Origin: a virus
Taxonomy: Duplodnaviria; Caudoviricetes
Virus record (IMG/VR): IMGVR_UViG_3300037851_000671
Location: 1 to 64,000 of that record
Reading direction: 5' to 3' (one strand)
DNA: 64,000 nt
Position 1 is the first letter of the stretch; every line of letters starts with the position of its first letter. The position numbers and the translations under genes are program-made. The notes under the pieces were generated by a model. It saw nothing but the letters and a program-made list of their open reading frames with translations, was not told the DNA's origin and did no database searches. Shown in pieces: positions 3 to 32,033 of this stretch.

Positions 3-830
3 GGTGGTGCTCCGCCTCCACCAGCTCCTGGCGCTCCGGGTGGCGGCGGGGGTGATGGTGATAAAGAGGGCACAATCAAACTGCTGTCAGAGTTCTTTAA
101 CAATCTGAAAACCGGCCTGCCCATCAGTGTTGAGGAAGATCAAAAACAGAGCGAAAAGGTTCCAGACAAGGCACCAGAGAAAAAGTCTTGGATGAATTGG
201 GATGATAATCTTGTTGTTAAGGCTCAAGATGCCACTCCTGCCGCTCCAGTTGCACCGCCTCCGCCAGAAGCTCCACCAGCAGCCCCAGAAGCTCCCGCTG
301 CTGAGACGCCGGCTGCTGAGGCCACCCCACCAACAGATAACACTGATGACGTGATTGAGAACGCTCTTGGTGATGTGTCAATGGATGACATCATCAATCG
401 TCTTGAGATGTTGGTTGGAGTATACAACAAGCGTGAGATTTCAAGACAGCTTGCCGTTCTAGATATCATGATGGACAAGCGTGGTTTGTCAGCATTCTTC
501 CCGGCTTTGGGAGAGGCACAAGCCAAGGCACTGGAAGCAAACCAGTATATCGGAAGCCGTCTTGAGGGTGTTCTTACCAAGCTGAAGGGATCTGTACAAG
601 CTCCAGAAGCTACAAATTGGATTAAAGACAACAAGCAAGAGGACACAAGTACAGCTGAGGTTCGTCAGAAATTGACTGAACAACAGGAAAAGGAAGAGCA
701 GCGTAGGGAGATGAGGAAGCAAAAGGAACTAGAACCAAAGGCGGCACCAGCTCAGCCTGTGGGAGAGGTTGCTCCTGAAATACAAGAACCAGCAAGGGTA
801 GAACAATCTCCAGCAATCCCAGTGAGGTAA
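3..830 (+). CDS. 5'-truncated Pro/Ala-rich putative head protein
   Basis: The frame of ORF 192..830 is open back to the window edge (GGAPPPPAPGAPGGGGGDGDKEG...); helical core LAVLDIMMDKRGLS; low-complexity linkers. Confidence 0.8.
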   Translation, partial: GGAPPPPAPGAPGGGGGDGDKEGTIKLLSEFFNNLKTGLPISVEEDQKQSEKVPDKAPEKKSWMNWDDNLVVKAQDATPAAPVAPPPPEAPPAAPEAPAAETPAAEATPPTDNTDDVIENALGDVSMDDIINRLEMLVGVYNKREISRQLAVLDIMMDKRGLSAFFPALGEAQAKALEANQYIGSRLEGVLTKLKGSVQAPEATNWIKDNKQEDTSTAEVRQKLTEQQEKEEQRREMRKQKELEPKAAPAQPVGEVAPEIQEPARVEQSPAIPVR

Positions 831-833
831 TTA

Positions 834-1583
834 GTGTCAATCCGTGATGTGCTTCTTGAAATAAAGCGTATTTCAACCGAGAATGGTTTGTCCGAGCCAT
901 TTGTGGTTGGAGGCTTGCCCAGAGACAAATTTCTGGACAGAGCACGCATGGTCAAAGACATAGACATAACCACAGGTGATGAGTCTGTAAAAAAACTTGC
1001 CGTATTGGTTGCCAATAGATACCAAGCACATCCGATACAGTTCGAGGACGGTCATCACCAGGTTGTTATTGGACAGGTGAGATTCGATTTCTCATCTAAT
1101 TTCAATTCTCCAGATATTGAATACTTTTTGAACAGGGCTGGTGTAAAAGATCCAACGCCAATGCAGCAGGAGTTGTTTAGTAGGGATTTCACCTGCAACA
1201 CTTTGATTGTTCCAATGAATCTTAGGAGTTTGAGCGATCCTACAGGTCTTGGTATTAATGATATCAAGAACAAGATATTGAGAACTCCTTTGCCACCACG
1301 AATCACTATGAGAGATGATCCTAGAAGGGTCATCAGGTCAATCTATTTGGCCACCAAGCTTGGATTTGAGGTTGAACAAGGTATTGTGGATTGGGCATTG
1401 AAAAACCAAGCTGCTATACATAAAGCTAGTAAACCAATGTATTCAAAGGGTAAATTGGCCGATGCCACTAGAGCAGATGTAGAGAAGACAATCAGGTTGA
1501 TGACTGAGATGAATCTTTGGCATGTAGTAAGTATTCCGAAGATTTTAGAGGATGCTTATTTTCAGAGAGGAGTAGTAAAATGA
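834..1583 (+). CDS. Class II tRNA nucleotidyltransferase / poly(A) polymerase family protein
   Basis: Motifs VVGGLPRD...DIDI (motif A), SRDFTCN (motif B, RRD-like) and DDPRR (motif D, E/DDxxR); 249 aa with no HD domain; GTG start. Confidence 0.9.
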   Translation: MSIRDVLLEIKRISTENGLSEPFVVGGLPRDKFLDRARMVKDIDITTGDESVKKLAVLVANRYQAHPIQFEDGHHQVVIGQVRFDFSSNFNSPDIEYFLNRAGVKDPTPMQQELFSRDFTCNTLIVPMNLRSLSDPTGLGINDIKNKILRTPLPPRITMRDDPRRVIRSIYLATKLGFEVEQGIVDWALKNQAAIHKASKPMYSKGKLADATRADVEKTIRLMTEMNLWHVVSIPKILEDAYFQRGVVK

Positions 1584-2652: not shown

Positions 2653-2684
2653 GTGTATAGCTATATTGGTTCACGAGGCAGAAA

Positions 2685-3581
2685 ATGAGTATACAGAAGC
2701 TTGCTGATGATTTTGATTCTCAAGATGTTGCTGGTCCTTTCAAAAAGGATCTTCTTAGGGGTTTGAAGCCTTTGATTGTTCATGAGGAAGAACCTGAAGA
2801 GGATATTGAAGAAAGGGATGATGACGTTGAGGTATCCGATGAGCCAGGAGAGGAGGGTGTAGTTTTCATCATTGATGACATACCAGGCGCTCCAGGCGCA
2901 GAGGCTATAGAGGTTGATGAGGGTGATAAGGACGTTGAGATTGATGAGTCAGAGATGCCAGAAGGCGATGAGTGGAAATGGGAAACCCCTACTTTCATTC
3001 CTTGGCTTCAGAAAATGATCAAGAACGTTCCTCAGCATACTGGATATGACACCACAGGTCTTGAGAAGGCCATCTCTTACTTTGAGAGCATTGATCGTGA
3101 AATCACAAAAGCTATGCGTACCGATTACAAGAACGAAATCAATTCTGCCCATGCTGAGAAGGCTAGAGAAGAGATTGAGAACGGACTTGAGCGTTTGATG
3201 GATCGTTTGGAGAAGGTACGCACTACCAAGTACAAGCGTCATGCAAAGAAAAAGAGCAAGTCTTGGACAGAGGAATATGGCATTGTAAAAGAGGCTGGAA
3301 CAGCGAAAATCACAGGAATCACAGTAACTGTTCCGTTGTTGATTGCCAGGATTGCTCGTGTTTGCATCAATGGCATGGTTTCTGCCGGACACGATATTGA
3401 AGACATATTTGAGAAACAGGCGAAGGAATATAACCTTGATAAAAGGGAGCGCGCAGAGCTTGCGCAGCTTCTTGATGATATGGGTTATGCCGTAAGAATG
3501 GATCGTGGTTATCCGGTTGGAGAACACGTTGATACCACAAAGTCTGACAATTTTGACTGGGCTGCAAACTACCCTGGATAA
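2685..3581 (+). CDS. Acidic putative head protein
   Basis: 298 aa; acidic N-terminus; IQKLAD and IVKEAG motifs; LAQLLDDMGY helix. Confidence 0.75.
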   Translation: MSIQKLADDFDSQDVAGPFKKDLLRGLKPLIVHEEEPEEDIEERDDDVEVSDEPGEEGVVFIIDDIPGAPGAEAIEVDEGDKDVEIDESEMPEGDEWKWETPTFIPWLQKMIKNVPQHTGYDTTGLEKAISYFESIDREITKAMRTDYKNEINSAHAEKAREEIENGLERLMDRLEKVRTTKYKRHAKKKSKSWTEEYGIVKEAGTAKITGITVTVPLLIARIARVCINGMVSAGHDIEDIFEKQAKEYNLDKRERAELAQLLDDMGYAVRMDRGYPVGEHVDTTKSDNFDWAANYPG

Positions 3582-3590
3582 GGAAAAACT

Positions 3591-4822: not shown

Positions 4823-4896
4823 CAAACAAATTTGTGGCATTCTCCAGTATTTAGATATGCATATGAAAGCTGTGCATGTTTTTACTGGAGAATTTG

Positions 4897-7833
4897 ATGA
4901 AGCAAGATAGTTTTGCCTCTTTGCTTGAGGCATACAGAGAAGGCGTCCTTTCAATGGACCCGGTCTTCTTTGTTGAGAATTTTTTAACTGTTGATGGCAA
5001 GTCGTTTGATTTGGGAACTGGATACAAGCCATTCAACGACATTTACAGATACATTGCCCTTCAAGCGGTTCAAGAAAACTCAAAGCCAATCGTAATGGTG
5101 AAGGGGCGTCAGGTTGGTGCCACCACCATGGCGGCGGCTTTGGAATGTTATTTCGTTGCATGTGGTCTGTTTGGAAATAACGGAAGACCACCAATGCGTA
5201 TGATGCATTTGTTTCCTACATTATCTTTGGCTGCCGCTTATACCAAAGACAAACTAGATCCAATCATTGGTTCTGCCCGTCCAGTACCAGGCGCTCTAAA
5301 ATCAAACGGACTTCTGAAGTCTTATATTGAAGCAAAACTAGACGCCTCCAATCCTGCCAACAACAACATGCACTTCAAGAAGTTCATGCACGGCAACCAG
5401 ATTTGGATTGAGTCTACTGGTTTGGATGGTGACCGTATTCGTGGACGAACCTGCGATGCTGCTTTTTTTGATGAGTGTTTTCCGTACTCTCAAAATATAG
5501 AAACTGATGTTGGCAAAGTTAAAATTGGAAAACTGTACGACATGTTCAAAGATGGTAAAACTTTACCACTAGTTAAAACGTACAATGAGGATTTGGATCG
5601 GTTCGAATTAAAACGTATCACAAATGCATGGAAACGTGGTGAGCGTGATCTTGTAAAGATAATTTGTGGTAATAGAGAGGTGCTATGCACTAGCAATCAT
5701 AGGTTTTTGACCACTGATGGTTGGAAACAGGCTAATGATATAGAGGTTGGAGAGTTGATAAAAACAACGCCAGCAGATGTTGGTCAATTATCAAAATCAC
5801 TAAACGACGATCAAATACAGATTATTTTAGGATCATTCCTTGGTGATGGTCATTTGTCAAAACACGGCCTTAATAAATATAGGATAAGCGAAAGGCACGG
5901 AATATCTCAACAAAACTATTGTGCCTGGAAGGCTGATATGTTTGGGGTAAAGCCTAAGCTTGTAGAAAAAAATGGATATTCACAGAAACCTGCGTTATCT
6001 TTTGCAAGCAAGTTATTTGGTTTTAAAGCCGATTTCCCATCAGAAAAAAACACCTGTCCACAATGGATTTTAGATCAGCTTGATGAACGTGGTCTTGCTA
6101 TATGGTTTATGGATGATGGTAGTACAAATAAACACATTGGTGGTGTTATAAATACATGCTCATTTGATGAAGAAACACAAATTAGGTTAGTAGCAAAACT
6201 AAAATCGTTTGGAATTGATTGTGAGTATAGGTTCTATAAATATAAAGGAAAGAAAAAAGAAGGTTACTATTCCATCTATCTTAACAAAACCGGTTATCGA
6301 AAGTTGTGCGACATTGTTCGTAAATATATTCATAGCGACTTGTATTACAAGGTATATGAGGCTTGCGATGAAACATCTTGTTATAAGTGGAATTCAAAGT
6401 TCAAACAACATGGTGTTATAACTGTTGTTGGTAAAGAGGTTGTAAACAAACCAGAATGTGTATATGATATTGAGGTTGAGGATAATCATAATTTCATAGT
6501 TACATCTGTAAAACATGCAAAAAATGGCGGTGGCCTGATCGCGCATAATTGCCAAGATATGTCTGATATTGCCATTGGTGCTGTTACCAAGATTCTGGCC
6601 CAATCAAAATACGGAGCAAGAGGCGAAGGTCTACAGGTATATTTCGGTACACCAAAGACAAAGGGCGGATCTTATTGGAAAATGTGGGAAGCATCTTGTC
6701 AAAACTACTACCACCTGCGTTGTGAGCATTGTGGAGAGTATTTCCCTCTGTATCGTCCAGACATCAACTGGGAAGATGTGTGGATTATTGGAACCACTGT
6801 AAGGTGCAGTTATTGTAAGCGAGATCAGGATAAAAACGAAGCTGTAGAACGTGGTAAGTGGGTTCCTCTAAACAACCCTGAAAATTCCGCGTTTGTTGGA
6901 TATCATATCAACCAGCTGTTTATCCCTCACTTTACCAGGGAAACGATTGAGAAAACCAAGCCAGAGAACAACAAGACCAACACCGAGAGGGTGTACATGA
7001 ACGAGGTTCTTGGTGAGTTTTTCGATGGTGATGGAGGAACCATTTCCGTTGAAGAGATTCGACAAAACTGTGCTGATAGGAATCGTAAACTATCAAAGAG
7101 CATTTCATCAGAGTCAAATCGAAAAGTGTATGCTGGTTTCGACTGGGGACAAAGAGCAGCGTTGGACCAAGCCACCGGAAGAAGGCAAGGAAAGTCATAC
7201 AGCTGTGCGGTTATTCTTACAGCAGATGGCCCGAACATTTTCAACGTAGAGTTTGCCACCCGTCTTCTAAGCAACGATCCTCAAGAGAAAGTGGATGTTG
7301 TAGAGGAGATGTTCAGGCGCTACACGGTTACGCTTGGAGTGGGAGATATTGGTGACGCCTTTGACCTTACACACAAACTGCAAAACATCCATGGTGATAG
7401 GTTTCTGGCTAGCCGTTCATCTTTCCGCATCAACGGTAGAGTAAAGTATTCTGAAGACGAATTTCCAAAAGTAATCCTTTTTGAGAAGGATTATTACATT
7501 GGTGAAATGATAGGTCTTATGAAAGAGGGTAAGATTAAATTTCCGTTTGGAAGCTATGATCGTATTGGTTGGTTGGTAAAACATTGTGCCAGTATGGATA
7601 CGAGGATTACGAGGGATAAGTCTGGTGAGCCGGTCAAAAGGTACGTCAAAGGAGATGGGCCAAACGACGGGCTCATGGCGCTTTTAAATGCGTATTTGGC
7701 TTGGAAATTTGATGTAACTCAAGGTTTCAAGATCAAGAGTCCGCAACAGATGCGGCATGACAGAGCAACCAATGTTCGGCAGATAGGTGCTATACTTGGT
7801 TATGTTCCGAAACTTTTTGGATCTAGGGGTTGA
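4897..7833 (+). CDS. terL: Terminase large subunit (intein-containing; about 620 aa after splicing)
   Basis: Walker A-like VMVKGRQVGATT; Walker B AAFFDE|C; CxxC..CxxC motif; nuclease motifs YAGFDWG and NDGLMA; ATG 4897 preceded by GGAGA (ORF track starts at 4876). Confidence 0.93.
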   Translation: MKQDSFASLLEAYREGVLSMDPVFFVENFLTVDGKSFDLGTGYKPFNDIYRYIALQAVQENSKPIVMVKGRQVGATTMAAALECYFVACGLFGNNGRPPMRMMHLFPTLSLAAAYTKDKLDPIIGSARPVPGALKSNGLLKSYIEAKLDASNPANNNMHFKKFMHGNQIWIESTGLDGDRIRGRTCDAAFFDECFPYSQNIETDVGKVKIGKLYDMFKDGKTLPLVKTYNEDLDRFELKRITNAWKRGERDLVKIICGNREVLCTSNHRFLTTDGWKQANDIEVGELIKTTPADVGQLSKSLNDDQIQIILGSFLGDGHLSKHGLNKYRISERHGISQQNYCAWKADMFGVKPKLVEKNGYSQKPALSFASKLFGFKADFPSEKNTCPQWILDQLDERGLAIWFMDDGSTNKHIGGVINTCSFDEETQIRLVAKLKSFGIDCEYRFYKYKGKKKEGYYSIYLNKTGYRKLCDIVRKYIHSDLYYKVYEACDETSCYKWNSKFKQHGVITVVGKEVVNKPECVYDIEVEDNHNFIVTSVKHAKNGGGLIAHNCQDMSDIAIGAVTKILAQSKYGARGEGLQVYFGTPKTKGGSYWKMWEASCQNYYHLRCEHCGEYFPLYRPDINWEDVWIIGTTVRCSYCKRDQDKNEAVERGKWVPLNNPENSAFVGYHINQLFIPHFTRETIEKTKPENNKTNTERVYMNEVLGEFFDGDGGTISVEEIRQNCADRNRKLSKSISSESNRKVYAGFDWGQRAALDQATGRRQGKSYSCAVILTADGPNIFNVEFATRLLSNDPQEKVDVVEEMFRRYTVTLGVGDIGDAFDLTHKLQNIHGDRFLASRSSFRINGRVKYSEDEFPKVILFEKDYYIGEMIGLMKEGKIKFPFGSYDRIGWLVKHCASMDTRITRDKSGEPVKRYVKGDGPNDGLMALLNAYLAWKFDVTQGFKIKSPQQMRHDRATNVRQIGAILGYVPKLFGSRG
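5476..6549 (+). mobile_element. Intein (358 aa) with LAGLIDADG homing endonuclease
   Basis: N-terminal CFPYSQNI, block B CTSNHRFLT, LAGLIDADG motifs ILGSFLGDG and LAIWFMDDG, block F VYDIEVEDNHNF, terminal HN followed by Cys+1; removal restores FFDECQD. Confidence 0.96.
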
Positions 7834-7850
7834 TATATTAGGAATGTACT

Positions 7851-12700: not shown

Positions 12701-14320
12701 GAGCCCGGAACTGAAATTGCTAGTGGAAGCGTACTTACGTTGAAAGATGGTGATACGGATAAGCTAAAAGGCGAGCGTATGATGCTGTCTGAGGCAGTGG
12801 CTGATTACGTCAACAGCAGATACCCTGGCAGGTTTGCAGAAGCTGAAATAGATCAGTTGTTCTCTGCTGGAAAAGTAACAGTTGATGATAAGGATGTACA
12901 GCCTAATCTAAATGTAGATCCTCAGTCTTTGATTGAGGTTGATTTTACAGGACTAGACCTGCCAGCACCAGCGGAAGCTTCAACATCTACAGCTCAATCA
13001 ACACCAGCGGCAGCACCAAAACCTGTGAAGGAAGCTCCAAAAGCAAAAGAGGCTCCGGCCCCAGCTCCAGCTGAGCCTCCAGCTCCTATTGAGGTTAATC
13101 CAAATACACCAACTTATACTCCAGATGGTAATGTCAAATTACAAACGGCTGTTGGTGCTTGGGGTATGAATTGGAAGACACCAATCAATGTCACTGAGGC
13201 AAAAGCTCTCATTGCTAGTGGAAGAGTTTATGTTGGTTCAGACAAGGTGACAGATCCAAGGTTCATGGTTGGTCCAGACAGCGTAATATCTCTGGATAAA
13301 ACGCCAGCCGCTGATGTTCCTGCTGCTGCCGCCGATACCACCAAAGAGATAGTAACAAAAACCCTAAAGCCAGATGGTCAAGGTTTGTTGAATGCTATTC
13401 GTGCTAATGTCAAACCTCCAATGCCTGATAAGGAAATAGCACGTGCAATCAGAGACGGCAGGGTTACAGTTGATGGAAATGTTGTAACAAAACCTGGAAC
13501 TGTTGTAAAGCCAGAAAATGTGATCAAAATTACAATGCCTATAACTGAGGCTCCGGAAAAGGCTAAGGAAACAGTTCCAACAGCAGAAGAAGCAACACCA
13601 GTAGCAGAAGAAAAGCCAGTTGAAACTGTAGAAGGCGGTGGTAACAAATTTGTTGTACCTTATTCTGGAACAACGGAAGACCATGCTTATGTCCCACCAT
13701 CAGGCAGTTTAAAACATGCCCTTTCAGATTTCTTGAAGAAAAACGATATGGAAGAGGTAAATGTTGATGACTTGATTAGAAGCGGTCGTGTAAAGGTGAC
13801 AACTATTGATAATGATAACATAAAAGAAATTCCGGCCGATGGACAATATATAACCAAGCCAAGTGATGAGATTTTGATTGAGAACCTGCCATCAGAACTA
13901 AAGCATGTAAAACTCACAGCCCAAACCGATACGACGCTCAAAACATTACTAGACGCCTTTGTGGCTAAGAAATCCTCTGGAGACGGTGCCTCGGCAGCTC
14001 TGTACAAACAGATTGATGTTGCAGCCTTGATAGAAAATGGCTTTGTATGGGTCAATGGTTCAGTTGTAAAAGAGCCTGATGCTCAAATAGCAAAGGAGTC
14101 TGTTGTAAAGATGTTCCATGACAATAGCATGCTAAGGTCAGCTGCAATGCGTATAGTGAACAGGATGATCAAGCAAGCAGAGGTAGCGTACGAGAACGGC
14201 GCGGTATACATTGCTAATACAATCCTGAAGAAAGCCGCTGATGTATGCGCAATGGTTGGAGACTATAGTAACGGTAACAAACTTCTGATTGCCGCTAACA
14301 AGTTGGTCAAAAATGGATAA
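9776..14320 (+). CDS. 1514-aa multidomain protein with about 10-11 tandem S4-like RNA-binding repeats
   Basis: Repeated L(K/D)xxL...xI/LxxGxVxV(D/N)G..V..P....(G/P)..I.V units, e.g. [49 protein letters not shown]; helical N-terminus; collagen-like G-x-T block. Confidence 0.8.
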
Positions 14321-15824: not shown

Positions 15825-16131
15825 GAGATTGATCAGGGAACTTGGCGATTTGTGCAAGGAAATACGGCTTTTGGGAGATAACCAATTGCTGGACATGGCT
15901 CTTTGCGCTTATGCCGCCGTTTCTGGATCTTCTCAAAAAACCAATGTTGATGTGAGTTATACATCTGTCATGCGCGAGCTTCGTAAGAAAAAAGACCTGG
16001 ATGTTGTTAGAAAGTTTCAGAGGTCATTCAAGGATGCTTTTGAGAGGGCTTTGGATGAGGATGTGGAAGACCCAGCGAACGTTGCGTTGATGGTGGCCAT
16101 GAAAGCCATCAAATATCGCAAGGAGGAGTGA
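15817..16131 (+). CDS. Small helical hypothetical protein
   Basis: ATG at 15817 after GGAGCAGGA; ORF track frame 15772..16131. Confidence 0.75.
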   Translation: MSERLIRELGDLCKEIRLLGDNQLLDMALCAYAAVSGSSQKTNVDVSYTSVMRELRKKKDLDVVRKFQRSFKDAFERALDEDVEDPANVALMVAMKAIKYRKEE

Positions 16132-18064: not shown

Positions 18065-21000
18065 ATGACTCTAATCAAACTTGGAGAGGCTGTTCAGTTA
18101 GATCCTCGTTCTTTAAGATCCGTTGATGCTTTTGCTGGTGATGTTGATTTGGACATTGATGGAAAAATGTACAAGTTCGCTCAGCAGCTCAAGGTCATTG
18201 CACCACAGGCAAAGGACTTTTTGTACTTTACATGTGTGATGATGCATGCGGCTGAAGCGGCTCTTTTGAATGACGACGGATCGTTGAAAAAACACGCAGA
18301 CGGCAGACCAGTATCTGCTGGCTGGGAAAACACACCCAATGGCGGTGTAAAATGGATATGTAGCGACCCAGGTATAAGGGCCTACAAGAACAACAATAAC
18401 GACATATTCCCAGAGTTAGAGCTAAAGACAGCTTACAAGAAATGGGTGGGTCGTCCTCTGTGCCTCGATCATAAGTCAGATTCTGTTGACAAGATTCGAG
18501 GCGTTATTGTTGATACGGTATGGGATGACAAGCGCAAGAGAGTGATTGCTCTGTGTGCTTTGGACAAGAAGAACTACCCAGACCTAGCTGATAAAGTTTC
18601 CTCTGGTGTGGCCGCCAACGTATCTATGGGTACTGCGGTTGGTAGGGCCGTTTGCACCGAGGCTGGATGTCATCGTGTTGCAAGAACTGAAAAAGATTTC
18701 TGCGCACATATGAGAAGCAAGACATGCTACGGAGAAATAAATCTTGACCTTGCCCCAATAGAGTTGTCTTTGGTGGTTAATGGAGCGGATCCAAAAGCCA
18801 AGGTAAAGCATGTTATAGCACAAGACTTAGGTAAGGCAGCGGAGTTGCTGACAGACTATCTTAGCTTAAAAGAGTCTGCCAAGAAAGTATCTACGCAAGA
18901 TCTGGCATCAATAAAAAGAGACCTTGCCCACCTGAGTGACAAGCTTGCACAGCTTGAAAATGGTGATGAAAATGATTCGGGCGTAGTTGAAGTGTCGAAG
19001 GCAACACGTACCCCAGCAAGTGTCAATATACATTCGACAGAAAAAACAGCATCGGAGGAAGATGAAATCCCACCGTATGCTTCTGAGTTACAGAAAGCAA
19101 TTCTGCGAGCACATACAAAAATTGCATCTCTGCAAGACAACTTTAACAGACTTTCTTCAGTTTCGAAGAGCGAGGAACAAAACATGAGTACAAAACGCGC
19201 ATATTATCAGGGAACCGTGGAGCCAAAGCCAGGCGATACCATGTACCAACCAGATCCGTTAGCCGATAAGGCGAGGCTGATGGACAAACACCTACATGGC
19301 CCAGGGGCTTTCCCTGACGTAGGCGATGTTGAGGGAATGTATCCGGGCATCACCCAGGATGACAAGGATCTCAAGAAGACCCTTCAGCGTTTGGCTGACG
19401 AAGAGGAGAGGGCAATGTTCCGTGAGGCAGCTCTCAAGAAAGCCAAGGAACAGCTGATGAAGCGTCATGCTTATATACAGGGCACCACAGAGCCAAATGC
19501 TGGCGGTGTAACTTACAAGCCAGATCCATTGGCTGATAAGGCTCGTGAAGAGGATAAGCACCTTGAGGGCGCTCCTCCATTCCCAGGTGTTGGCAAGGTT
19601 GACGGTCTCTATGATGATGACCTCGCTACAAAAGAGAAGCTTTCCCGTGCCGGTCTCAGGGCTAGATTTGAGAAGGTTGCATTCCCAGATGGTCGTTTGA
19701 ATAAGGCCGCTTCTCGTTGGGAAGTATATGCTGGAAACAAGCTCGTTCTTGCTGCTACCGTTGATCAGATTACAAAGGGAAATGCCCGTCATCTGTATGA
19801 AGCTGTTGCCACCAAGCGTTTTGGTGAGAGTCTTTTGAGCAGAATCAAGACAGAAGGATTTCAGGCCACAGCCAACGCCATGTTGAAGAGCGCTGCGGAT
19901 CCAGCCCCTGCCGCTGATCCTGCCGCTCCAGCTCCAGCCCCAGCAGCTCCTCCAGCGGGAGATGCGCCAGGTCTTGAGCCTCCAAAGGATGTTGACGCAG
20001 CTGCTCCGGCAAATGTTCCAGACATTGCAAAAGACATTCAGGATCTTGGAGATGAGCTTGTTCAGAAAGCGAATGATCTTGTTGAAGCTTCTGGATCGGT
20101 TGATAAGGATGCCAAGAATCTTGAAGGTGTACCAGAGGCCGGTGCAGATGAGTTCAAGGCTGCCGAGCAGGGTAAGCCACAGAAAGACGCCGCTCTTCAG
20201 AGCATGCGTAAGACTGTAAATGGTATGTTGCGTGATGGAATTCGTGAGACAGCGGGTAATCTGCTCAGTCATGCGAAGGAGCTTCATACAGCTCGTGAAG
20301 TATACTTGACAAGCTACGCTTCCATGTCCCCACAGCAACGTCAGTATTTGAATGCGCTCACAGTTGATGCTGTACAAGATGCTAGAGCGCTATTGGCAGA
20401 AACAACTAAACTCATGGGCGCTGTGATCAAGTACGCGTATGGTACGGCTGAGCTTGAGAAGCGCGCAGGAGCAAATTCACAAGGAGCGCTTATGAGCTAT
20501 GCCGAAGACGATGAGAACGATGCAAAGAAGGGCAAGAACCCATTCGCCAAGAAGGATGAGGACGATAAGAAAGACGACGATGAGGATTCAAAGAAGTGCA
20601 AGGACGATGAGAACGATCTGAGTGATAGTGATATCAACGATCTCATGAAGAGCCTGAGCGATGAGGATGATTGCGGTTACATGGACGAGAATGATCTTGT
20701 TCCTCAAACCGCAAATAAGCCAGCTACCCCTCAGCCAGCAATACCACCAGGACAGGGCAAGCCAGCTCCAGGTCCAGCACCAACACCAGTTCCTGCACCA
20801 GCTCCAGCTCCACAGGATGAGGACGATTTGTTCAAGTTTGATGATGAGAATGATTTGTTTGCTGATGACGACGCTGACGCTGATGACAATGACTCTGTCA
20901 AGCTCGATGTAGACGATGCCGGCAAGATCGGAATTTCTACAGCGGCTGGACGTGCAGCTCTCCGTACCAAGATTGCAAAGGACGGACTACTCGGATTCAA

Positions 21001-21664
21001 CGAGCTTAGTCAGCAGGCTCACCCACGTGGTAGCGCAGAGATCCCAGGCAAGCTTGACACGAAGCCATCCGTTGAGTCCAAGTTCCACGTGTTCAAGGAC
21101 CTCAAGGAGCAGATGCTTGATCTGGCTCACATGCCACCAAAGGTTCGCAAGCAGGCTGAGGAGATTCAGCGCTTGATAACGGCCGGACAGCTCAAGGTTG
21201 CCGACGTTGGACAGCTTGCTTCCTTCGGTGTTGATCAGGCAGCTATTGCATTCTGGAAGGAGCTGTATGGTCAGGGCGATTCCAAGAGCAAGGAGTTCGC
21301 AAAGGAACTGACTTCTGAGCATGAGACTCAGAAGCGCGCTGAGGATGCCCGTATATACGAAGCCCGTGTAAAGCGTGCTTATGACCTGGCTTACGAGATG
21401 CGTGAGAGAGGAATGATTGAAGGCAGCCAGATGAAAGAGCAGGTTGACGAGATCATGAAGTGGAATGATGACGGATTCACCTCTGTAAAGAGAATGATTG
21501 GTCGTCAGCCAGTGGTCAAGCAGGCTTCTGTTCCGATGGTTGGTTTGCTTCACTCCGGTGATGTAATTCTCCCAGCTGCTGGTGCTTTCTCGGCATCCGG
21601 CGGAAATGGCGACGGTGATATCAAGAACTATTTCGACAGCTACTTCGCTAACAAGAAGTTCTAA
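18065..21664 (+). CDS. Prohead maturation protease fused to a long scaffold-like region
   Basis: HK97/assemblin-type motifs PLCLDH (His), NVSMG (Ser) and IELSLVVNGADPKA; Cys/His cluster CTEAGC..FCAH; C-terminal acidic, coiled-coil and Pro/Ala segments. Confidence 0.85.
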   Translation: MTLIKLGEAVQLDPRSLRSVDAFAGDVDLDIDGKMYKFAQQLKVIAPQAKDFLYFTCVMMHAAEAALLNDDGSLKKHADGRPVSAGWENTPNGGVKWICSDPGIRAYKNNNNDIFPELELKTAYKKWVGRPLCLDHKSDSVDKIRGVIVDTVWDDKRKRVIALCALDKKNYPDLADKVSSGVAANVSMGTAVGRAVCTEAGCHRVARTEKDFCAHMRSKTCYGEINLDLAPIELSLVVNGADPKAKVKHVIAQDLGKAAELLTDYLSLKESAKKVSTQDLASIKRDLAHLSDKLAQLENGDENDSGVVEVSKATRTPASVNIHSTEKTASEEDEIPPYASELQKAILRAHTKIASLQDNFNRLSSVSKSEEQNMSTKRAYYQGTVEPKPGDTMYQPDPLADKARLMDKHLHGPGAFPDVGDVEGMYPGITQDDKDLKKTLQRLADEEERAMFREAALKKAKEQLMKRHAYIQGTTEPNAGGVTYKPDPLADKAREEDKHLEGAPPFPGVGKVDGLYDDDLATKEKLSRAGLRARFEKVAFPDGRLNKAASRWEVYAGNKLVLAATVDQITKGNARHLYEAVATKRFGESLLSRIKTEGFQATANAMLKSAADPAPAADPAAPAPAPAAPPAGDAPGLEPPKDVDAAAPANVPDIAKDIQDLGDELVQKANDLVEASGSVDKDAKNLEGVPEAGADEFKAAEQGKPQKDAALQSMRKTVNGMLRDGIRETAGNLLSHAKELHTAREVYLTSYASMSPQQRQYLNALTVDAVQDARALLAETTKLMGAVIKYAYGTAELEKRAGANSQGALMSYAEDDENDAKKGKNPFAKKDEDDKKDDDEDSKKCKDDENDLSDSDINDLMKSLSDEDDCGYMDENDLVPQTANKPATPQPAIPPGQGKPAPGPAPTPVPAPAPAPQDEDDLFKFDDENDLFADDDADADDNDSVKLDVDDAGKIGISTAAGRAALRTKIAKDGLLGFNELSQQAHPRGSAEIPGKLDTKPSVESKFHVFKDLKEQMLDLAHMPPKVRKQAEEIQRLITAGQLKVADVGQLASFGVDQAAIAFWKELYGQGDSKSKEFAKELTSEHETQKRAEDARIYEARVKRAYDLAYEMRERGMIEGSQMKEQVDEIMKWNDDGFTSVKRMIGRQPVVKQASVPMVGLLHSGDVILPAAGAFSASGGNGDGDIKNYFDSYFANKKF

Positions 21665-21717: not shown

Positions 21718-21748
21718 TCTTGATATCTTGAACAATAGGAGAATTTCA

Positions 21749-22675
21749 ATGAAATTTGACATAGCTAATAACATGAACCAGATCCTTGGCAGCCAAGAAT
21801 ACCGTAAGGTTTTTGAGCGTCCAGCTTTGCAGAAAAAAGCATCTTCACAAGAGGCATCAGGCCTTGAGTCTTTGGCAGCCGAACTGTCCAAGATATCTGA
21901 GAAGCTTGACAATGCTGGTTTGGAAGAGGGTGCAAAAACAGCTCTTAAGGCAGTTGCAGCCATGATGAAAGAGGCCCGTTCCAAGAAGGCGTGGCAGGAT
22001 GAATCTTCTGATGAGGGAGATGTCAAGATGCCAGCATGGAAACGTGACTTTTATTCAGACCCAAACAGGGTTGATTTCAAAGACCCAGAAGACATAGAGG
22101 TAGAACCACTTACTGAGGACGATCTTGACGGTGAAAAACTTCTCAGGATGGAGTTGAAGCCACGTGAACCAGAGGAACTTGATATTCCTGGTGATTCACT
22201 TGTGCAAATAACACCAAGAAAGCCAATTGATGATCCTGTTGGAGAGATGGTTGGCGAGCCACAGTTTGACATTGCGGATGTTGTTTGTGATGACGACGAT
22301 GATGTTCCAACAAACAAGGCAGCTTTCTTGAAGGCAATCGACAAGGCAATTTACCGTCAGGCGTTTCTTGATGAGATAGAGCGCGCGATTTTGGTTGTTG
22401 AAGCTGCTGATAAAAAGAAGAAAGCAGATCCAAAGGCTGAGGTCAGGAATCGTCCAGCACCAGTGTTTGATGCCAAGCACCCAAAGGTAAAGGACAATAA
22501 GGACCACTTCCCAATTGATACGATTGGAAGGGCAAGGAATGCATTGGTCAGAAGTCATCAGTTTGATGGCGCACCTCCATGGTGGAAGGGTTCCTTGAAG
22601 GAGCTTCAGAACGCTGTGGCGAAAGCGGTACACGGCAAGTATCCGGCCATTGGAAAGGAAGACAAGAAGAAGTAA
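21749..22675 (+). CDS. Putative internal head protein
   Basis: ATG 21749 after AGGAGA; QKKAS, SKKAW and YRQAF motifs; helix LSKISEKLDNAGLEEGA. Confidence 0.75.
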   Translation: MKFDIANNMNQILGSQEYRKVFERPALQKKASSQEASGLESLAAELSKISEKLDNAGLEEGAKTALKAVAAMMKEARSKKAWQDESSDEGDVKMPAWKRDFYSDPNRVDFKDPEDIEVEPLTEDDLDGEKLLRMELKPREPEELDIPGDSLVQITPRKPIDDPVGEMVGEPQFDIADVVCDDDDDVPTNKAAFLKAIDKAIYRQAFLDEIERAILVVEAADKKKKADPKAEVRNRPAPVFDAKHPKVKDNKDHFPIDTIGRARNALVRSHQFDGAPPWWKGSLKELQNAVAKAVHGKYPAIGKEDKKK

Positions 22676-22709: not shown

Positions 22710-22922
22710 ATGATGAGAGATTTTTCACAGAGTTTAGAGAACGCGATGGCTGCAAATCTATCTGGGGCCAATGTAAAGTTGGCCTCAGAAGAGAGCGCTA
22801 TCAATCATCTTGAGAAGGCTCATAACATCTTGATTAATGCTGGATTTGAAGAGTATGCCAGTGATGTTGGTAAGATTTTGTACTCATATGCTAGCATTGG
22901 GGATATAGAGGTGGAACTATGA
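22710..22922 (+). CDS. Small putative internal head protein
   Basis: VKLASEE; helix LEKAHNILINAGFEEYA. Confidence 0.75.
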   Translation: MMRDFSQSLENAMAANLSGANVKLASEESAINHLEKAHNILINAGFEEYASDVGKILYSYASIGDIEVEL

Positions 22923-23260
22923 GATGGAACAACCTTTCCGGTGATGAGATTTTTGAGGCAATGGAAAGGATTGGTTTATCAAAAGTTGCATCTGAAGATT
23001 CAGCTGATGACGAGGCGATAGTTTCGGCATTGGAAGAGTTGGACGCAGCGGCTCAGAGTTTTGAGGCTGCTGGATTAGTGAGACAGGCTAGGCAGGTTTC
23101 TGAACTTATGACAGTGGTAGCAGCAAAGAAAAAACCACCGGTAAAGAACAAGCCAGCAAAAAAAGGCGTAAGTGAAGAGGCCAAAAAGGTACTTAGGATG
23201 TTTGGTTTTTCTGATAAAGACCTTGAGGGCCATGAAACAGATTCAGACAACCTAAAATAA
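22919..23260 (+). CDS. Small putative internal head protein
   Basis: LSKVASED; helix LDAAAQSFEAAGLVRQA. Confidence 0.75.
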   Translation: MRWNNLSGDEIFEAMERIGLSKVASEDSADDEAIVSALEELDAAAQSFEAAGLVRQARQVSELMTVVAAKKKPPVKNKPAKKGVSEEAKKVLRMFGFSDKDLEGHETDSDNLK

Positions 23261-23540: not shown

Positions 23541-23557
23541 TATGCGATAGGTAATGT

Positions 23558-24016: not shown

Positions 24017-24052
24017 TATATCTACCATTATAGCCTATAGGAGATAGCACAG

Positions 24053-24748: not shown

Positions 24749-24751
24749 TCT

Positions 24752-25153
24752 ATGTTCAAGATAGTTGAATGTGCTTTTACACATCCAATAAGGATGCCAG
24801 TAAAACCAGGAATACGAATAAGTGCTGGGCACATAGTTAGAACTATTGATTACAAAAATCATGTTGTTGTTGATATTAGTGATGGGTATAGTTTTCTAGG
24901 AGTGGCCGGCAACAGGTGTAAGGGCGGGGCAGAAGTTGACTATGGGAATGTGGTCAAGATTTTCCCACAGCGCATGGTGTTGAGAATTGACAAGTATGAC
25001 AAGAAGTACCCAATGGGAGCGGGAAGCTCGTTGTATGTTGGGTTCGATGGAATTCTGACTTCAAGGAAGCCGCATGAAAGAGCGGTTATTACTGCCAAGG
25101 TGATATCACCAGAAACAGAAGAGCGGAAGTTTATTGAGATCTTGTATTTGTGA
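24752..25153 (+). CDS. Head decoration-like protein (paralog 2, compact/diverged)
   Basis: DISDGYSFLGV, IDKYD and LYVGFDGILT align to 24053. Confidence 0.6.
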   Translation: MFKIVECAFTHPIRMPVKPGIRISAGHIVRTIDYKNHVVVDISDGYSFLGVAGNRCKGGAEVDYGNVVKIFPQRMVLRIDKYDKKYPMGAGSSLYVGFDGILTSRKPHERAVITAKVISPETEERKFIEILYL

Positions 25154-25224
25154 AGATGCTGGTAACAGTGCATAAGTTCACATTCAATTGATACCTTGTT
25201 GGGTATGTTGTATAAAGGTGTTTC

Positions 25225-25551
25225 ATGGTAATGGACGAAGTTTGGAAGGAATTTTTCACTGACCATCAGACCGCTCGCGCACTGGATAGCTCAGAGGTTT
25301 TCCGTGAATATGCGAGAGCTGAGTTAGCTCGTGATGAGTTGAGGAAGCGTGCCCAGGCTCAAAACAGCATGGACGCCAGAATCCAAGAGCTTAACGAGAT
25401 AGAAGAGATGAATCGTAAAGTGGCTAGCGATCCTGCGCTTAAAGCGAAGCTTCGTCAGGCACGTGATTATCTTGAGGAGCATCCAGAGGCAGTGGCGGGT
25501 GTTGATCAAAACTTTGTTCGTGGACTGAGCCTACTTGACCTTGAGGACTAA
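25225..25551 (+). CDS. Putative internal head protein
   Basis: SEVFREYAR motif; LRKRAQ site. Confidence 0.7.
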   Translation: MVMDEVWKEFFTDHQTARALDSSEVFREYARAELARDELRKRAQAQNSMDARIQELNEIEEMNRKVASDPALKAKLRQARDYLEEHPEAVAGVDQNFVRGLSLLDLED

Positions 25552-25554
25552 AAC

Positions 25555-27357
25555 ATGAAGATTGGACTTGCAAAGCAATCATTTCAGAATCTATACGGCT
25601 CCGAGGTATATCGTGAGCTTGAGCGTCAAGCTGTGCGCAAAGGACACTTTGAGCCAACACCAGCGGAGCAGGTTAAGCTTGCATCCAATGAGCTTGCCAT
25701 ATCGAAGCGTGTGAATGCAGAGGTTGATCTGACACCTAGCAGTGACCTGTCACAGGACATTGCCAAGCTTGCCCATGCTCTTCGTCGCAAGGGATACGTC
25801 AAGCAAGCTGAGGATCTTGAATCAAACTTTGTGTTGTTCAAGCAGGCCGAGACAGCTTTGTACAATGTCAACAACGAGAGGGCTAAAGAGCTTATGGAGA
25901 TGGCGCATTCCGATGGGGATGTGGACATTGTTGATGGTGGGGAGCTTGGGGAGATTGAGACAATTCAGAGCGCGGCGGATAAGATACTTGCCGTTGTGAA
26001 CAAGAAGCCAACGGGGAAATTGGCTTCGATGGCAGCTCTGATTATGAAAAGGGGAGAGGTGCCAATTGGACCACCAACCGCTGAACAGGCAGCTGCTGCG
26101 ACAACTACCGGAACTAAAGAGCGTTCCTTGAAGATTAACAAATCAGAACGAGAATGGTCACAAGAACTGGCAAAAGTGAATGCGGCTCTTGGTACCATAG
26201 CAGCGGCCATACCAGAACAGCCAATACCAATTAGCAACAGTCCTTTGGAATGGGATGAAGCTGCAACACAAAAGTTTAGTGTGTATAGTGGTATTAGACC
26301 TGATGTTGCAAAAAAAGGTGTTGATGCAATGAGGAAAGCCAATGCTTCTGGTGTTTTGGAACATGGTGGTTTTTCACTTAATGCACAGTATGTCAAATCT
26401 ATTATCTATAAAGATCCAATGACTAATACTAATTTCATGGATTTTGTTAGGTTCCTTGGTGTTGACCCAAATTATTTTGGCGCCAATGGAGAAAAGGGTT
26501 GTTTTAGCTACTGGATGGAAGACCCAGGTGCGGTAGAGTTGATAAAAGGTATTTTGGACTGGAGTAACCCATTAGGAGTATACCAAAGGATATTTGGACA
26601 AGACGAGGTAAACAAATCTCCTAAGTCCATATACTACCAGACAAGAGTAGTGTATGGACAGCCAGGTTTTATACCTCGTGTTGAGGCTAATATACAAGCC
26701 CTAACCAGCGACATAATTGCAATATTCAACGGCATAATACAAGCTGCCTTTGGAGGCGATGGTGTAAATATAACCAAAGCACAGCAGATTATGAAATCTG
26801 ATTTCGACAAGATTAGACAGTCTGTTTCAAAAGCATTGACACCAGATGTTGCAAACGAAAGTGGAAAATTCAACGTACAAAAAGCACAATCAGTCCTAAG
26901 TGAACTTGATAAAAACCAGAACATCATAACAAACAACAATGATGCTTTTGAGAGAATAAAGGCAACAGATACTGGTTTGGCTACCAAACTACAAGGCGCT
27001 ATAGCTTCTTTTGGTAAGGTTTTGGAAAGTTCTGTGTCTAAAATGCGTGAGTTCAGTAAAGTCGGGGACGAAAATGTTGTGGCTTATATTGCAGAACTTA
27101 AACAGTGGCAAGATCTTTGGAAGCGTGTTGCTACCCACGCTGCGGCAACTGATGAAGAAAAAATGATTTCTAACAAGAACAAAGATGCAATTGATGATGC
27201 TTTGGCAGCAATTCAGACCGGAGATTTTGGCGAAATATCAGATGGTCTTGGGTTGAATATCAAGAACATGAAAGATTTGAACAATTACTTTGAGACAAGT
27301 ATAAGGACGCCTGGTTTGGACAATTATTTGAAGGTTCTAGACAAAAAGGTGAAGTAA
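25555..27357 (+). CDS. Putative internal/ejection protein
   Basis: SEVYRELER; KLAS and KQAE sites; the N-terminal domain aligns with 30675. Confidence 0.65.
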   Translation: MKIGLAKQSFQNLYGSEVYRELERQAVRKGHFEPTPAEQVKLASNELAISKRVNAEVDLTPSSDLSQDIAKLAHALRRKGYVKQAEDLESNFVLFKQAETALYNVNNERAKELMEMAHSDGDVDIVDGGELGEIETIQSAADKILAVVNKKPTGKLASMAALIMKRGEVPIGPPTAEQAAAATTTGTKERSLKINKSEREWSQELAKVNAALGTIAAAIPEQPIPISNSPLEWDEAATQKFSVYSGIRPDVAKKGVDAMRKANASGVLEHGGFSLNAQYVKSIIYKDPMTNTNFMDFVRFLGVDPNYFGANGEKGCFSYWMEDPGAVELIKGILDWSNPLGVYQRIFGQDEVNKSPKSIYYQTRVVYGQPGFIPRVEANIQALTSDIIAIFNGIIQAAFGGDGVNITKAQQIMKSDFDKIRQSVSKALTPDVANESGKFNVQKAQSVLSELDKNQNIITNNNDAFERIKATDTGLATKLQGAIASFGKVLESSVSKMREFSKVGDENVVAYIAELKQWQDLWKRVATHAAATDEEKMISNKNKDAIDDALAAIQTGDFGEISDGLGLNIKNMKDLNNYFETSIRTPGLDNYLKVLDKKVK

Positions 27358-29426: not shown

Positions 29427-29427
29427 T

Positions 29428-30678
29428 ATGACAACTGGAGAATTCAAACTAATCTCAGATTGTTTACTTTTGGAAAGAACACTGAAAGTCATTGCGGAGC
29501 TGGAGGCTGAAGAGAATGGCGGAGACATGGTCAAAAACGCATTTGACATGTCTTCGTTTTTCAGCGGTATATTGGGTACGATCAAAAACTCGGTAGCTGG
29601 ACAGGCAGAGGGCCAGTCCCCATTGCACGTTGCTGTCAGGTTCTTGGCACCAGCGATGTTTTTCAGATTGAACCCAGTGCTTGGTATCCTTGTTACCATA
29701 GCACAATCACTTGGTTTTGATCTGGTTAGCATATTCGAGAAGATTGCAAATCCAATCATAGACATGCTAAAAAGCAACAAACCTATAAAACCAGAGGATG
29801 TAGATCAGTTAGGCAGGGCGGCAGCAGCCAGTCTTGGTGCAACAGCTTCAGAAGATCTGCTTGGACCACTTCGCAAACTGGATAAATACGGACTGAAAGT
29901 TGCCATAGCTGAGGGGGCCTTTTCTTCTGCTTGGGGTAAGGGTTTTTTGGGCACAAGCGGAGGTGTTCCATGGATGGGTCAAGGTCTATCTCCGTTACAA
30001 AGAATGTTTACATTCATGGCTCCTTCCGCTGGTAAAAACATACTAGTTGGATTCATCGTATCAGCTATCAAGACGGTTTTGATGTCTTGTGGTCTTTTGG
30101 CTGGTGTTGGTTTGGCGGCCGGTGCTGTTGGTTTGTTGATGCACGGAAACAAACCAGTTGCTGGGACAGTGACCCCGGCCCCCGGACACGCCCATGTTCC
30201 GGCTGGTGCTCCAAAACCAGGACAACCAGGGGCTCCAACCGTTCAACCATCTAGTTCTGCTGCCCATGCATTCAAATCCAAACCAGAAGAGTTTAGCCCA
30301 CATGCACGAAGCTTAGGATATGGCGAGGGCGATGAATACTACGATGACAGAACCATTGATACAAATGGTATGACACCAGAGCAGATACTACAGACCTGGA
30401 TTTTCAGCCAGTACCCACAACTAGGTCTTACGATAACCCAAGATCAGTTACCGGGAGTATTGAGGACGACACCGGAGTATACAACAGTAGTGAACAAGCT
30501 GCGCCAATATTGGACACCTGGCAGCGCATATCTTCGGATACCAGAAGAGCTTGGCGATTCTTCCAATGAGATTTTGGGACGTTTTATGCCGCAGGTTTTG
30601 AGAACCCTTCAAGCGAAGCCAGTTCAACCTAGCCAACAGCTATACGATTTTGAGCGACAATATCAGGAGAGCCCATGA
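29428..30678 (+). CDS. Putative ejection protein with hydrophobic segments
   Basis: MVKNAF and LKVAI sites; hydrophobic run LLAGVGLAAGAVGLLM. Confidence 0.6.
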   Translation: MTTGEFKLISDCLLLERTLKVIAELEAEENGGDMVKNAFDMSSFFSGILGTIKNSVAGQAEGQSPLHVAVRFLAPAMFFRLNPVLGILVTIAQSLGFDLVSIFEKIANPIIDMLKSNKPIKPEDVDQLGRAAAASLGATASEDLLGPLRKLDKYGLKVAIAEGAFSSAWGKGFLGTSGGVPWMGQGLSPLQRMFTFMAPSAGKNILVGFIVSAIKTVLMSCGLLAGVGLAAGAVGLLMHGNKPVAGTVTPAPGHAHVPAGAPKPGQPGAPTVQPSSSAAHAFKSKPEEFSPHARSLGYGEGDEYYDDRTIDTNGMTPEQILQTWIFSQYPQLGLTITQDQLPGVLRTTPEYTTVVNKLRQYWTPGSAYLRIPEELGDSSNEILGRFMPQVLRTLQAKPVQPSQQLYDFERQYQESP

Positions 30679-32033
30679 GTTCATTTAGAAACACATCAGA
30701 CATTTTTGAAGAGTATGCAAGAATTGCTATTGCTCATGGTCTTGTCTCTGAAGCCGAGGATGACAAGAACGATGCCAAGACAGAGAAGAATGATTCTCTG
30801 TCTGATGATGCGATAGCTATGTTGTATGGAGTTGAGCCAAAGAACTTTTATGGCAAGGACTCCATTCTTGAAGCCGCTCATCCAGATACATATGTGGTTG
30901 GACGTGCGTATGACCCAATGAATGCTGTTGTGGAAAATCTGCAAGAGCGTCAGAACATCATGAGTCAGATTGCTCTTAGAACACCTGATGGAACGGCCAC
31001 ACAAAAACGCTATGTTCAGGCCAGGTCTGATTTGATTAATTCTTTGGTAAGAGCTGGGTTTTTGATGGACAATAGGAATGAGTCATCTCTGATGAAGATG
31101 GCAGATTCCTGTGCGCTGCGTTTGAGTCAAGAAAAAAAAATGGTTAAAAACGCCAATCCATGGCTGATAGCTGCCGGAATAGCCACCGTTGTATCTGGTT
31201 TGATTGGGGCTTCTCTTTGGTTTACAAAAGGGTCCACCACAGTTCAGAATGTTTACGCCAATGCCGAGATGGTGAAGAAACAAGCGCAAACCGTTCAAGA
31301 GTCTTATTCCAAGGACATCTCTGACAGAATGGATGAGATTATGAAGCTTGCGGCAAATGCTTACAAGCAAGCCGAAGAAGCTAAGTCTATGGTTTCAAAG
31401 TACAAAATAGGAAAGAGCATATCAAAGAGCACTGTGCAAAACCTTAGTTCTGATATGATTTCAGATCCTGTTCAGAAGAAAGTGGCAGAGAGCATACTCA
31501 CATCCTTGAAAGAGTATAACGCAAAACTAGAAGAGCTTGGCGGACCAAATGGCAAGATTATGGTTTGGGCAAAGACGATATTTTCGCTTGTTCCAAAGGC
31601 TGATATGTCAACCCAGGTAAGCAGTGATGAGTATGCAAAACTGAAAACGATTTGGGATCAGTTTACATCAAGCCCACAAGGAATATTGGTAAACCGTCTG
31701 ATTGGAACTCAAAAGTTCTCAGAGATGGCTAATGATGCAATGAAGTACATCAGCGGAAATTTTGAGGGTCCAAAGACGCCAGAAAACGTTGAAGGCGGTT
31801 TGTTGGGTGCGGTAGAAAAAGAAAAGGTTTCTACCAAGTCTACAATTGGTACGTTGGAATCACTTCTTCCCGCTATACAGAATGTTGTTAGTAAAACAGT
31901 AGCGCAAAACATGATTAGCGCCCCGGCGTCCCCAGCAGCGCCAGCAAAACCAGGAAAATACATTCTCAGAGGAGACCCTGAGCCAGCCTCTCCAATAGGA
32001 AAGCCAACCGGACCTGGGGCACCAATTAGCTAA
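30675..32033 (+). CDS. Putative ejection protein with one TM-like helix
   Basis: SDIFEEYAR; MVKNA followed by NPWLIAAGIATVVSGLIGASLWF. Confidence 0.65.
   Translation: MSSFRNTSDIFEEYARIAIAHGLVSEAEDDKNDAKTEKNDSLSDDAIAMLYGVEPKNFYGKDSILEAAHPDTYVVGRAYDPMNAVVENLQERQNIMSQIALRTPDGTATQKRYVQARSDLINSLVRAGFLMDNRNESSLMKMADSCALRLSQEKKMVKNANPWLIAAGIATVVSGLIGASLWFTKGSTTVQNVYANAEMVKKQAQTVQESYSKDISDRMDEIMKLAANAYKQAEEAKSMVSKYKIGKSISKSTVQNLSSDMISDPVQKKVAESILTSLKEYNAKLEELGGPNGKIMVWAKTIFSLVPKADMSTQVSSDEYAKLKTIWDQFTSSPQGILVNRLIGTQKFSEMANDAMKYISGNFEGPKTPENVEGGLLGAVEKEKVSTKSTIGTLESLLPAIQNVVSKTVAQNMISAPASPAAPAKPGKYILRGDPEPASPIGKPTGPGAPIS

Follow-up and report, generated by a model that had tools for sequence, protein, structure and literature searches.

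A three-helix domain in proteins encoded after the prohead protease of an uncultured huge phage: a candidate assembly module of the phage head

By what feature are the internal proteins of a huge phage brought into the forming head? To our knowledge, little has been established, T4 and the phiKZ group apart, on how dozens of proteins, internal and ejected, come to fill such heads. The question is raised here by the head module of a virus (Duplodnaviria; Caudoviricetes), in the first 64 kb, hereafter the window, of the 218,772-base IMG/VR record IMGVR_UViG_3300037851_000671. An earlier note on this DNA, made from the sequence alone, had proposed that nine unrelated head-cluster proteins share one short amphipathic helix serving as a capsid-targeting signal like that of T4. 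Our analysis points to a different element, a folded three-helix domain of ~65 residues, by which the proteins gp21728, gp22710 and gp22919, encoded directly after the prohead protease, are homologous. This family is undescribed so far, and its most likely kind, a scaffold assembly or docking hairpin, is already known.

The three-helix domain and the genes that carry it

Genes between 1 and 36 kb lie almost all on the + strand and together form the head module, which starts with the large terminase gene (carrying an inserted endonuclease-like segment) and then the portal gene. Further along are encoded gp9776, of 1514 amino acids (aa) with S4 and collagen-like repeats, and a 1199-aa fusion with the head maturation protease in its N-terminal part; directly 3' of the latter stand the domain genes, in a run of unannotated genes that leads to the capsid protein gene, itself divided by an endonuclease-bearing insertion. 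Among cultured phages, Bacillus phage G is the nearest relative (portal 32% identical), and none gave a nucleotide match in a megablast of 20 kb. For comparison, 51 related IMG/VR loci anchored on the protease domain were used, and iterative single-sequence searches were run against 1629 open reading frames (ORFs) of these loci and 242 ORFs of the record. The protease fusion and the copies of the domain are listed below, with the segments of the earlier note numbered in their order along the window.

18065..21664, + strand: prohead protease with a long C-terminal region as fusion (match to head maturation protease phrog_18299, 6.6e-15)
21749..21979, + strand: N-terminal domain of gp21728 (ORF 21728-22675), with first helix at residues 8-21, K-K-A-S at 36-39 and hairpin at 45-84 (nt 21860-21979); holds segment 5
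22710..22904, + strand: gp22710 (70 aa), of which the whole protein is the domain, with hairpin at nt 22785-22904; holds segment 6
22940..23134, + strand: N-terminal domain of gp22919 (113 aa), with a basic tail after the hairpin, which spans residues 33-72 (nt 23015-23134); holds segment 7
14141..14308, + strand: C-terminal three-helix copy of gp9776, residues 1456-1511, with segment 3 (14165-14215) as its first helix and the equivalent hairpin at ~1482-1511
25735..25905, + strand: hairpin of gp25555, a probable diverged copy (helices 65-78 and 82-117; predicted local distance difference test, pLDDT, 93-97); holds segment 8

The three core members found each other in jackhmmer searches from single seeds: gp22710 retrieved gp22919 at 1.6e-11, gp22919 retrieved gp22710 at 2.6e-13, and residues 37-92 of gp21728 retrieved gp22710 at 9.4e-8 and gp22919 at 3.9e-4. 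Chance as the source of this likeness was rejected by 24 shuffled or reversed seeds, which gave no match. Furthermore, 13 ORFs of distant relatives were matched by two or three separately built family hidden Markov models (HMMs), always through the hairpin, and orthologues of gp21728, gp22710, gp22919 and gp25555 retain the helix-turn-helix where their flanks have fallen to ~30% identity. Leave-one-out tests on the four window hairpins alone were only marginal (E 0.002-0.05, with gp25555 not retrieved), so that the case for homology rests on the relatives. The first helix (D-I-A..M...L) is also common to the small proteins and gp21728, and the unit is therefore one of three helices and ~65 residues. 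In the 219-kb record no other protein was matched by the final profile (next best E 0.14), and a six-frame search of the record with a narrow gp22710 profile returned gp22710 itself only.

The architecture consists of a short first helix, a linker and a tetratricopeptide repeat (TPR)-like helix-turn-helix. In an AlphaFold2 model of gp22710, built from a 22-row alignment, helices span residues 2-17, 20-43 and 47-65, with pLDDT of 90-95 over residues 31-60; the three helices thus fill 65 of its 70 residues, and the remark of the earlier note that this protein is little more than the helix was apt. The hairpin consensus, drawn from 92 distinct copies, is Ah..L..ASEhLD..Gh...A..h..hh..L. Its first helix is amphipathic, its best-conserved positions (Ala, Leu, Ala) lie on one helical face, and its turn region is acidic.

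When 1.84 billion cluster representatives were searched exhaustively with the profile, 409 matched at E <= 0.001, 30 of them at <= 1e-10. Among the best 150 representatives, which are 60-353 residues long (median 75) with tails of 0 to ~290 residues beyond the domain, 145 have one full copy, and in 144 of these it starts within the first 25 residues; the three with multi-stretch matches are all ordinary TPR_12/SNAP repeat proteins. A Pfam scan of eight longer members found no domain at gathering score, PHROGs searches with 22 small and 10 long members returned no known-function family and none for the domain, and a homologue search for longer fused forms scored none.

Gene order is conserved as well. 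Of the 51 loci anchored on the protease, 39 contain between one and five domain genes, which with few exceptions follow the protease gene directly, and the usual order is protease, a long charged member and two small members that abut or overlap. Counterparts of gp22710 and gp22919 in relatives are at most ~10 nt apart, and in the window the start of gp22919 overlaps the stop of gp22710 (ATGA), as read directly from the sequence. A soil metagenome contig of other source also carries two adjacent domain genes, and the portal-to-capsid block of phage G gave no domain match. Within the record, the domain is restricted to the head block.

The long member, gp21728, keeps its hairpin in 10 orthologues despite a shift by a K/E-rich insert of variable length, and these orthologues have scaffold-like K/E-rich and D/E-rich low-complexity stretches. 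Its conserved C-terminal 80 residues (window 22430-22672; H-F-P-I-D-T...R-A-R-N-A-L) are encoded in several relatives by a small ORF of their own (L003 14573-14863, L006 14606-14884), and the gene is therefore fused in some phages and split in others. For this C-terminal region, DUF6582 was suggested as a lead only by an ESM Atlas score of 0.83, which Pfam scans did not confirm.

Two further copies were identified in large proteins. A profile of relatives' C-termini matched residues 1456-1511 of gp9776 at E 5.2e-6, the next best in the record being the gp21728 hairpin at 0.019, and the corresponding region in 11 relatives was matched by a gp21728-seeded profile at 1e-7 to 1e-3. Here the hairpin equivalent to the other copies is the helix pair after segment 3, one helix later than the earlier note had placed it. 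The hairpin of gp25555 lies inside a conserved N-terminal domain of ~155 aa (nt 25555-26019) that is found on bodies of 118 to 1264 aa. It was not reached by the single-seed sequence searches of locus and record ORFs, and a related-locus search from gp25555 alone gave no relative. Profile-profile alignments were all in register (P 0.004 with the large profile, 0.012 over 62 columns including the first helix, 0.09 with the family of small members), suggesting that gp25555 carries a probable diverged copy. A wide VIA-align search with the model of its N-terminal domain reached a best Z of 5.7, in common helical arrangements only.

The nine listed segments, K-x-A sites and other features of the head block

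The nine peptide strings of the earlier note exist, all in + strand ORFs and within a few bases of their positions. As a set, they did not behave as one family. Across the 242-ORF record, motif patterns were found 7 times against 3.6 +/- 1.9 in residue shuffles, and 5 times against 2.7 +/- 1.6, which is no enrichment. An HMM built from the nine segments and scanned as the note had suggested gave no match of at least 3 bits outside its training set, in head or in non-head genes; leave-one-out retrieved none, and segments 1, 3, 4 and 9 were not aligned at all. Nor is the helix common to nine unrelated proteins, as three of its bearers (gp21728, gp22710, gp22919) are paralogues and four segments are unrelated. 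The matches to the stricter pattern are not scattered: four of them fall in genes 21728, 22710, 22919 and 25555, at residues 34-85, each running into the second helix, and the pattern in the title of the earlier note approximates the consensus of the true domain. What survives is a recurrent helical element in several head-cluster proteins with differing remainders, and not a short signal in nine. The list comprises three certain members, one displaced by one helix, one probable and four false; the last are the following.

450..488, + strand: segment 1, conserved in its own family, with no link to the domain and not amphipathic
3459..3488, + strand: segment 2, in a C-terminal region 49-66% identical in relatives; link to the domain not significant (E 1.2)
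15841..15891, + strand: segment 4, the gp15772 family's own conserved N-terminal helix-LLG-helix, with no link to the domain
31044..31094, + strand: segment 9 (gp30675), a conserved helix in which the glycine is alanine in most orthologues, with no link to the domain

Segments 1, 2, 4 and 9 are ordinary helix ends. More generally, matches of 'helix then glycine' found by eye are mostly such helix ends, which are not to be read as signals. For gp15772 (window 15772-16131), the listed TTG start overlaps the preceding gene, and relatives (L001-L014, near 7800) start at the position of an internal ATG (Met16); the real protein is therefore probably shorter than listed, at ~104 aa.

Sites of the form K-x-A, which the earlier note had placed next to the helices, are candidate cleavage sites of the prohead protease. 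K-x-A-S is present 8 to 30 residues ahead of the hairpin in the window copies of gp21728, gp22710, gp22919 and gp25555, and the claim was right for these four; in orthologues of gp22710 or gp22919 the sites are not conserved. K-x-A-[SA] is conserved in the gp21728, gp25225 and gp25555 families, and stands on both sides of the hairpin in gp21728 orthologues. When copies were aligned on the turn, K-x-A was enriched about twofold at positions -30 to -16 and about threefold at +15 to +19, a modest effect, and K-x-A also occurs within the second helix as part of the consensus. As the candidate site is upstream of the hairpin, cleavage there would leave the hairpin on the downstream product, unlike a T4 targeting peptide. 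In three of the four window proteins the site even precedes the whole domain, which a cut at that point would therefore leave in place.

Other elements recur in the head block. The two genes after gp22919 (window 23271-23962) begin with another amphipathic leader, in which A and K abound (I-A..AAK.AA..TY..I) and which is the second recurrent N-terminal element of the block and stands in relatives on unrelated bodies, sometimes twice per protein (L001 14752-15030, L002 15026-15520, L003 15463-16095). The third, distinct from the three-helix domain, is an N-terminal helix shared by gp25225, gp25555 and gp30675 (S-E/D-V/I-aromatic-x-E-aromatic...G-L/H; window 25225-25551, 25555-25660, 30675-30770; L133-L137) and kept in orthologues; further downstream, an L-Y...A-H-P block is common to gp25555 and gp30675. 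Moreover, gp24053 (231 aa) and gp24752 (133 aa) are paralogues (window 24053-25153), and some relatives have endonuclease-like ORFs between their counterparts. The former is 72-83% identical in closer relatives (61-63% in L009 and L011), being the most conserved in the block after the capsid protein, and no family match was found for it.

Just 5' of the protease gene, window 16133-17218 encodes a dual-specificity/tyrosine phosphatase-like domain (Y_phosphatase2, E 6e-11), and its product is a candidate packaged enzyme. The large terminase (window 4876-7833; 985 aa) has a LAGLIDADG endonuclease-like segment at residues 310-483, preceded by a helicase-like stretch, and this arrangement suggests an intein or other inserted element.

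Possible partners and role of the domain

If the domain acts in head assembly, the candidates for its partner are another copy of the domain, the protease fusion and the capsid protein. The capsid protein of this clade has an extra N-terminal helix, amphipathic and absent from the phage G capsid protein, to which, of all parts of that protein, the domain profiles gave their best, though marginal, local match (E 0.05-0.2; P 0.013 and 0.024).

33936..33992, + strand: N-terminal extension helix of the major capsid protein (exon 1, residues 13-31), resembling the first hairpin helix weakly, as a lead only

Co-folding of a relative's uninterrupted capsid protein with its gp22710 homologue scored 0.00, a run that had no controls and speaks neither for nor against binding. 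The capsid gene (window 33900-36077) is interrupted after codon 76 by an insertion with a LAGLIDADG endonuclease gene (34284-35198), and relatives (L057, L060, L064, L065, L079) read without interruption through the same junction (ANPIR then RNLDY). Across 80 loci the capsid protein is 78-93% identical, against ~30% for the scaffold-like genes.

We lean, with slightly better than even confidence, to the explanation that the domain proteins are prohead scaffold or core (internal) proteins and that the domain is their assembly module. This is based on the position after the protease, the charged low complexity of gp21728 orthologues, the tight gene coupling, the conserved small-residue face of the hairpin and its N-terminal placement on variable tails; an assembly or docking role is further suggested by the scaffold hairpins of P22 and phi29, which bind the capsid N-arm (PMC12005531, PMC11922011). 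The domain defines a family of small and strongly charged proteins, whose genes immediately follow that of the protease in a clade of huge phages known from uncultured members. On this explanation, the conserved Ala/Leu face of the domain would pack into helical bundles with other copies, and possibly also with the helical N-terminal extension of the capsid protein. Bundling would bring tails or larger bodies, as attached to the domain, into the head as it forms, where the protease may then cut at the flanking K-x-A sites. Homology, class of fold, N-terminal placement, order of genes and confinement to the head block are results of the analysis; location in the prohead, formation of bundles, partner and cleavage are the most likely reading that position, architecture and analogy with P22, phi29 and T4 would give.

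Several observations weigh against the scaffold or core explanation. All family members come from metagenomes, and the record is ~51% complete (CheckV), so that absence of the domain from the rest of the genome holds for the sequenced half. The turn glycine is present in 85 of 99 copies, and neither it nor the next residue is invariant. The likeness of the capsid N-terminal helix to the domain is statistically weak, and so is the link to gp25555 (P 0.004 to 0.09 with broad profiles and up to 0.37 between single families). In addition, the profile also matches ordinary TPR_12/SNAP repeat proteins, which marks the hairpin as a fold for interactions in general, with no pointer to capsids of its own. 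Finally, several longer gp22919-type proteins (P0049, P0092, P0118, P0129, P0132, P0137) have a C-terminal motif after the basic stretch, G-L-T-S-E-K-M..N-L.H-K-G-W-V-F-N-A-D-D, weaker in window 23180-23230, and this could be the true capsid-binding, or a second docking, element.

One alternative, unlikely in our estimation yet the strongest of the rivals, is that the domain is a direct capsid-binding hook of the P22 or phi29 type, each copy binding the capsid N-arm or N-terminal extension, with bearers including gp9776 and gp25555 as cargo on the inner wall; it amounts to the idea of the earlier note, narrowed to the true members. In size and form the hairpin resembles the known hooks (PMC12005531, PMC11922011), the domain stands on bodies of very different size, and the extra amphipathic N-helix of the clade's capsid protein is absent from phage G, which has no detectable domain genes either. 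However, PDB profile and Foldseek searches gave no sequence or fold match to the P22 or phi29 scaffolds, the likeness to the capsid N-helix is marginal, and the turn region of the hairpin is acidic. It is decidedly improbable, to our judgement, that the domain is instead a generic TPR-like hairpin with a role outside capsid entry, such as chaperone-like or regulatory contacts during infection of the cell, or a structural filler, whose bearers would never enter proheads; the profile matches to TPR_12/SNAP repeats and the fold searches, which gave common helical arrangements only, are what such a hairpin would produce, whereas the strict position between the protease and capsid genes, conserved in 39 loci, the scaffold-like composition with conserved flanking K-x-A-[SA] and the single hairpin with a specific first helix, outside any repeat array, all speak against it.

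The full proposal of the earlier note, one short amphipathic T4-like targeting signal in nine unrelated head-cluster proteins that is removed by cleavage, is very improbable and largely refuted by the results above. Its strings exist, its consensus matches that of the true domain, and in T4 short shared propeptides do target unrelated proteins (PMC9026906); against this, the pattern is not enriched over shuffles, leave-one-out fails, four segments lack any link to the domain, three members are paralogues, and the unit spans ~65 residues, with the nearest K-x-A-S upstream of it. The part of that proposal concerned with docking or incorporation fared better, inasmuch as the domain is N-terminal in nearly all copies checked, ahead of variable tails, and confined to the post-protease gene block, and what fell away was the short signal of T4 type.

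Returning to the scaffold or core explanation, the domain offers a candidate, open to test, for the contact through which proteins are recruited to the prohead. It also offers an annotation handle, covering 409 sequence clusters, for scaffold or core genes left blank by Pfam and PHROGs. A bolder extension, which we hold to be improbable, is that the portable domain is a general entry ticket to the prohead, by which scaffold paralogues and very large cargo (gp9776 and gp25555-type proteins of up to 1264 aa) would dock through the extra N-terminal helix of the capsid protein.

Comparison with known systems

The hairpin repeats of TPR_12 and alpha-SNAP type (PF13424, PF14938) also have a packing face of small residues and leucine and a glycine-containing turn, and single repeats of them are matched by the domain profile. 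The best match to a natural protein in the PDB profile search was alpha-SNAP (E 0.009), for which reason the hairpin is called TPR-like. TPR_12/SNAP proteins are tandem repeats, and those among the representative matches score through summed repeats, whereas true members have one hairpin and a family-specific first helix: in place of a tandem array of at least three hairpins, 145 of the 150 best representatives show a single full-length match. No window protein reached the Pfam TPR thresholds, and Foldseek against the PDB with the gp22710 model returned nothing at E <= 0.001, only generic hairpins. A scaffold protein was likewise missing from the PDB profile search, Foldseek and the VIA-align rows, in which short hairpins give little signal.

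In the giant phages SPN3US, phiKZ and 201phi2-1, long N-terminal regions of many head proteins are cut by the prohead protease at a short motif and are suspected to be assembly guides (PMC10052503). That study does not report one shared domain for these propeptides, whose cleavage was mapped by mass spectrometry (PMC10052503), whereas here the domain is shared and cleavage is a prediction.

The T4 capsid-targeting sequence (CTS) is common to the internal proteins IPI, IPII and IPIII (Mullaney and Black 1996, as reviewed in PMC9026906), and short shared propeptides can bring unrelated proteins into the T4 core (PMC9026906). Both elements stand at the N-terminus of proteins with differing remainders, are tied to protease sites and have been proposed as a route into the scaffold core. 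As with the unrelated mature parts in T4, the parts outside the domain differ among gp21728, gp22919, gp9776 and gp25555; gp21728, gp22710 and gp22919 are still paralogues through the domain. The CTS is a peptide of ~10 residues at the extreme N-terminus that ends at its cleavage site and is removed, whereas the folded unit described here is some six times longer, with its candidate site upstream of the hairpin, and the gp9776 copy is C-terminal.

Scaffold hairpins provide the nearer parallels. In P22, the C-terminal helix-turn-helix of the scaffold protein gp8 acts as a hook that binds the N-arm of the coat protein (PMC12005531, PMC9965877), and cargo that has been engineered as a fusion with this scaffold enters the capsid (PMC9962691). 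The likeness lies in a helical hairpin of ~40 residues in a scaffold-type protein, which could give tethering to the capsid interior, and the AlphaFold2 hairpins of gp22710 (20-43 and 47-65) and gp25555 (65-78 and 82-117) agree with the size of ~35-45 residues of the P22/phi29 type. The P22 hook is C-terminal, basic and electrostatic, whereas the hairpin here stands at the N-terminus, gp9776 with its C-terminal copy being the one exception, and has an acidic turn region. Should the domain prove to be a general entry ticket, it would parallel in nature the engineered P22 scaffold-fusion cargo, and if it were portable it could be used to bring foreign proteins into large capsids.

In phi29, the N-terminal helix-turn-helix of the scaffold protein gp7 binds a cleft in the N-arm of the capsid protein, or alternatively dimerises (PMC11922011). 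Although phi29 has one scaffold gene and no prohead protease, where the phages studied here have three to five paralogues and large fusions, and no sequence relation is detectable, gp7, as a small scaffold protein with an N-terminal hairpin, is the closest architectural analogue of gp22710.

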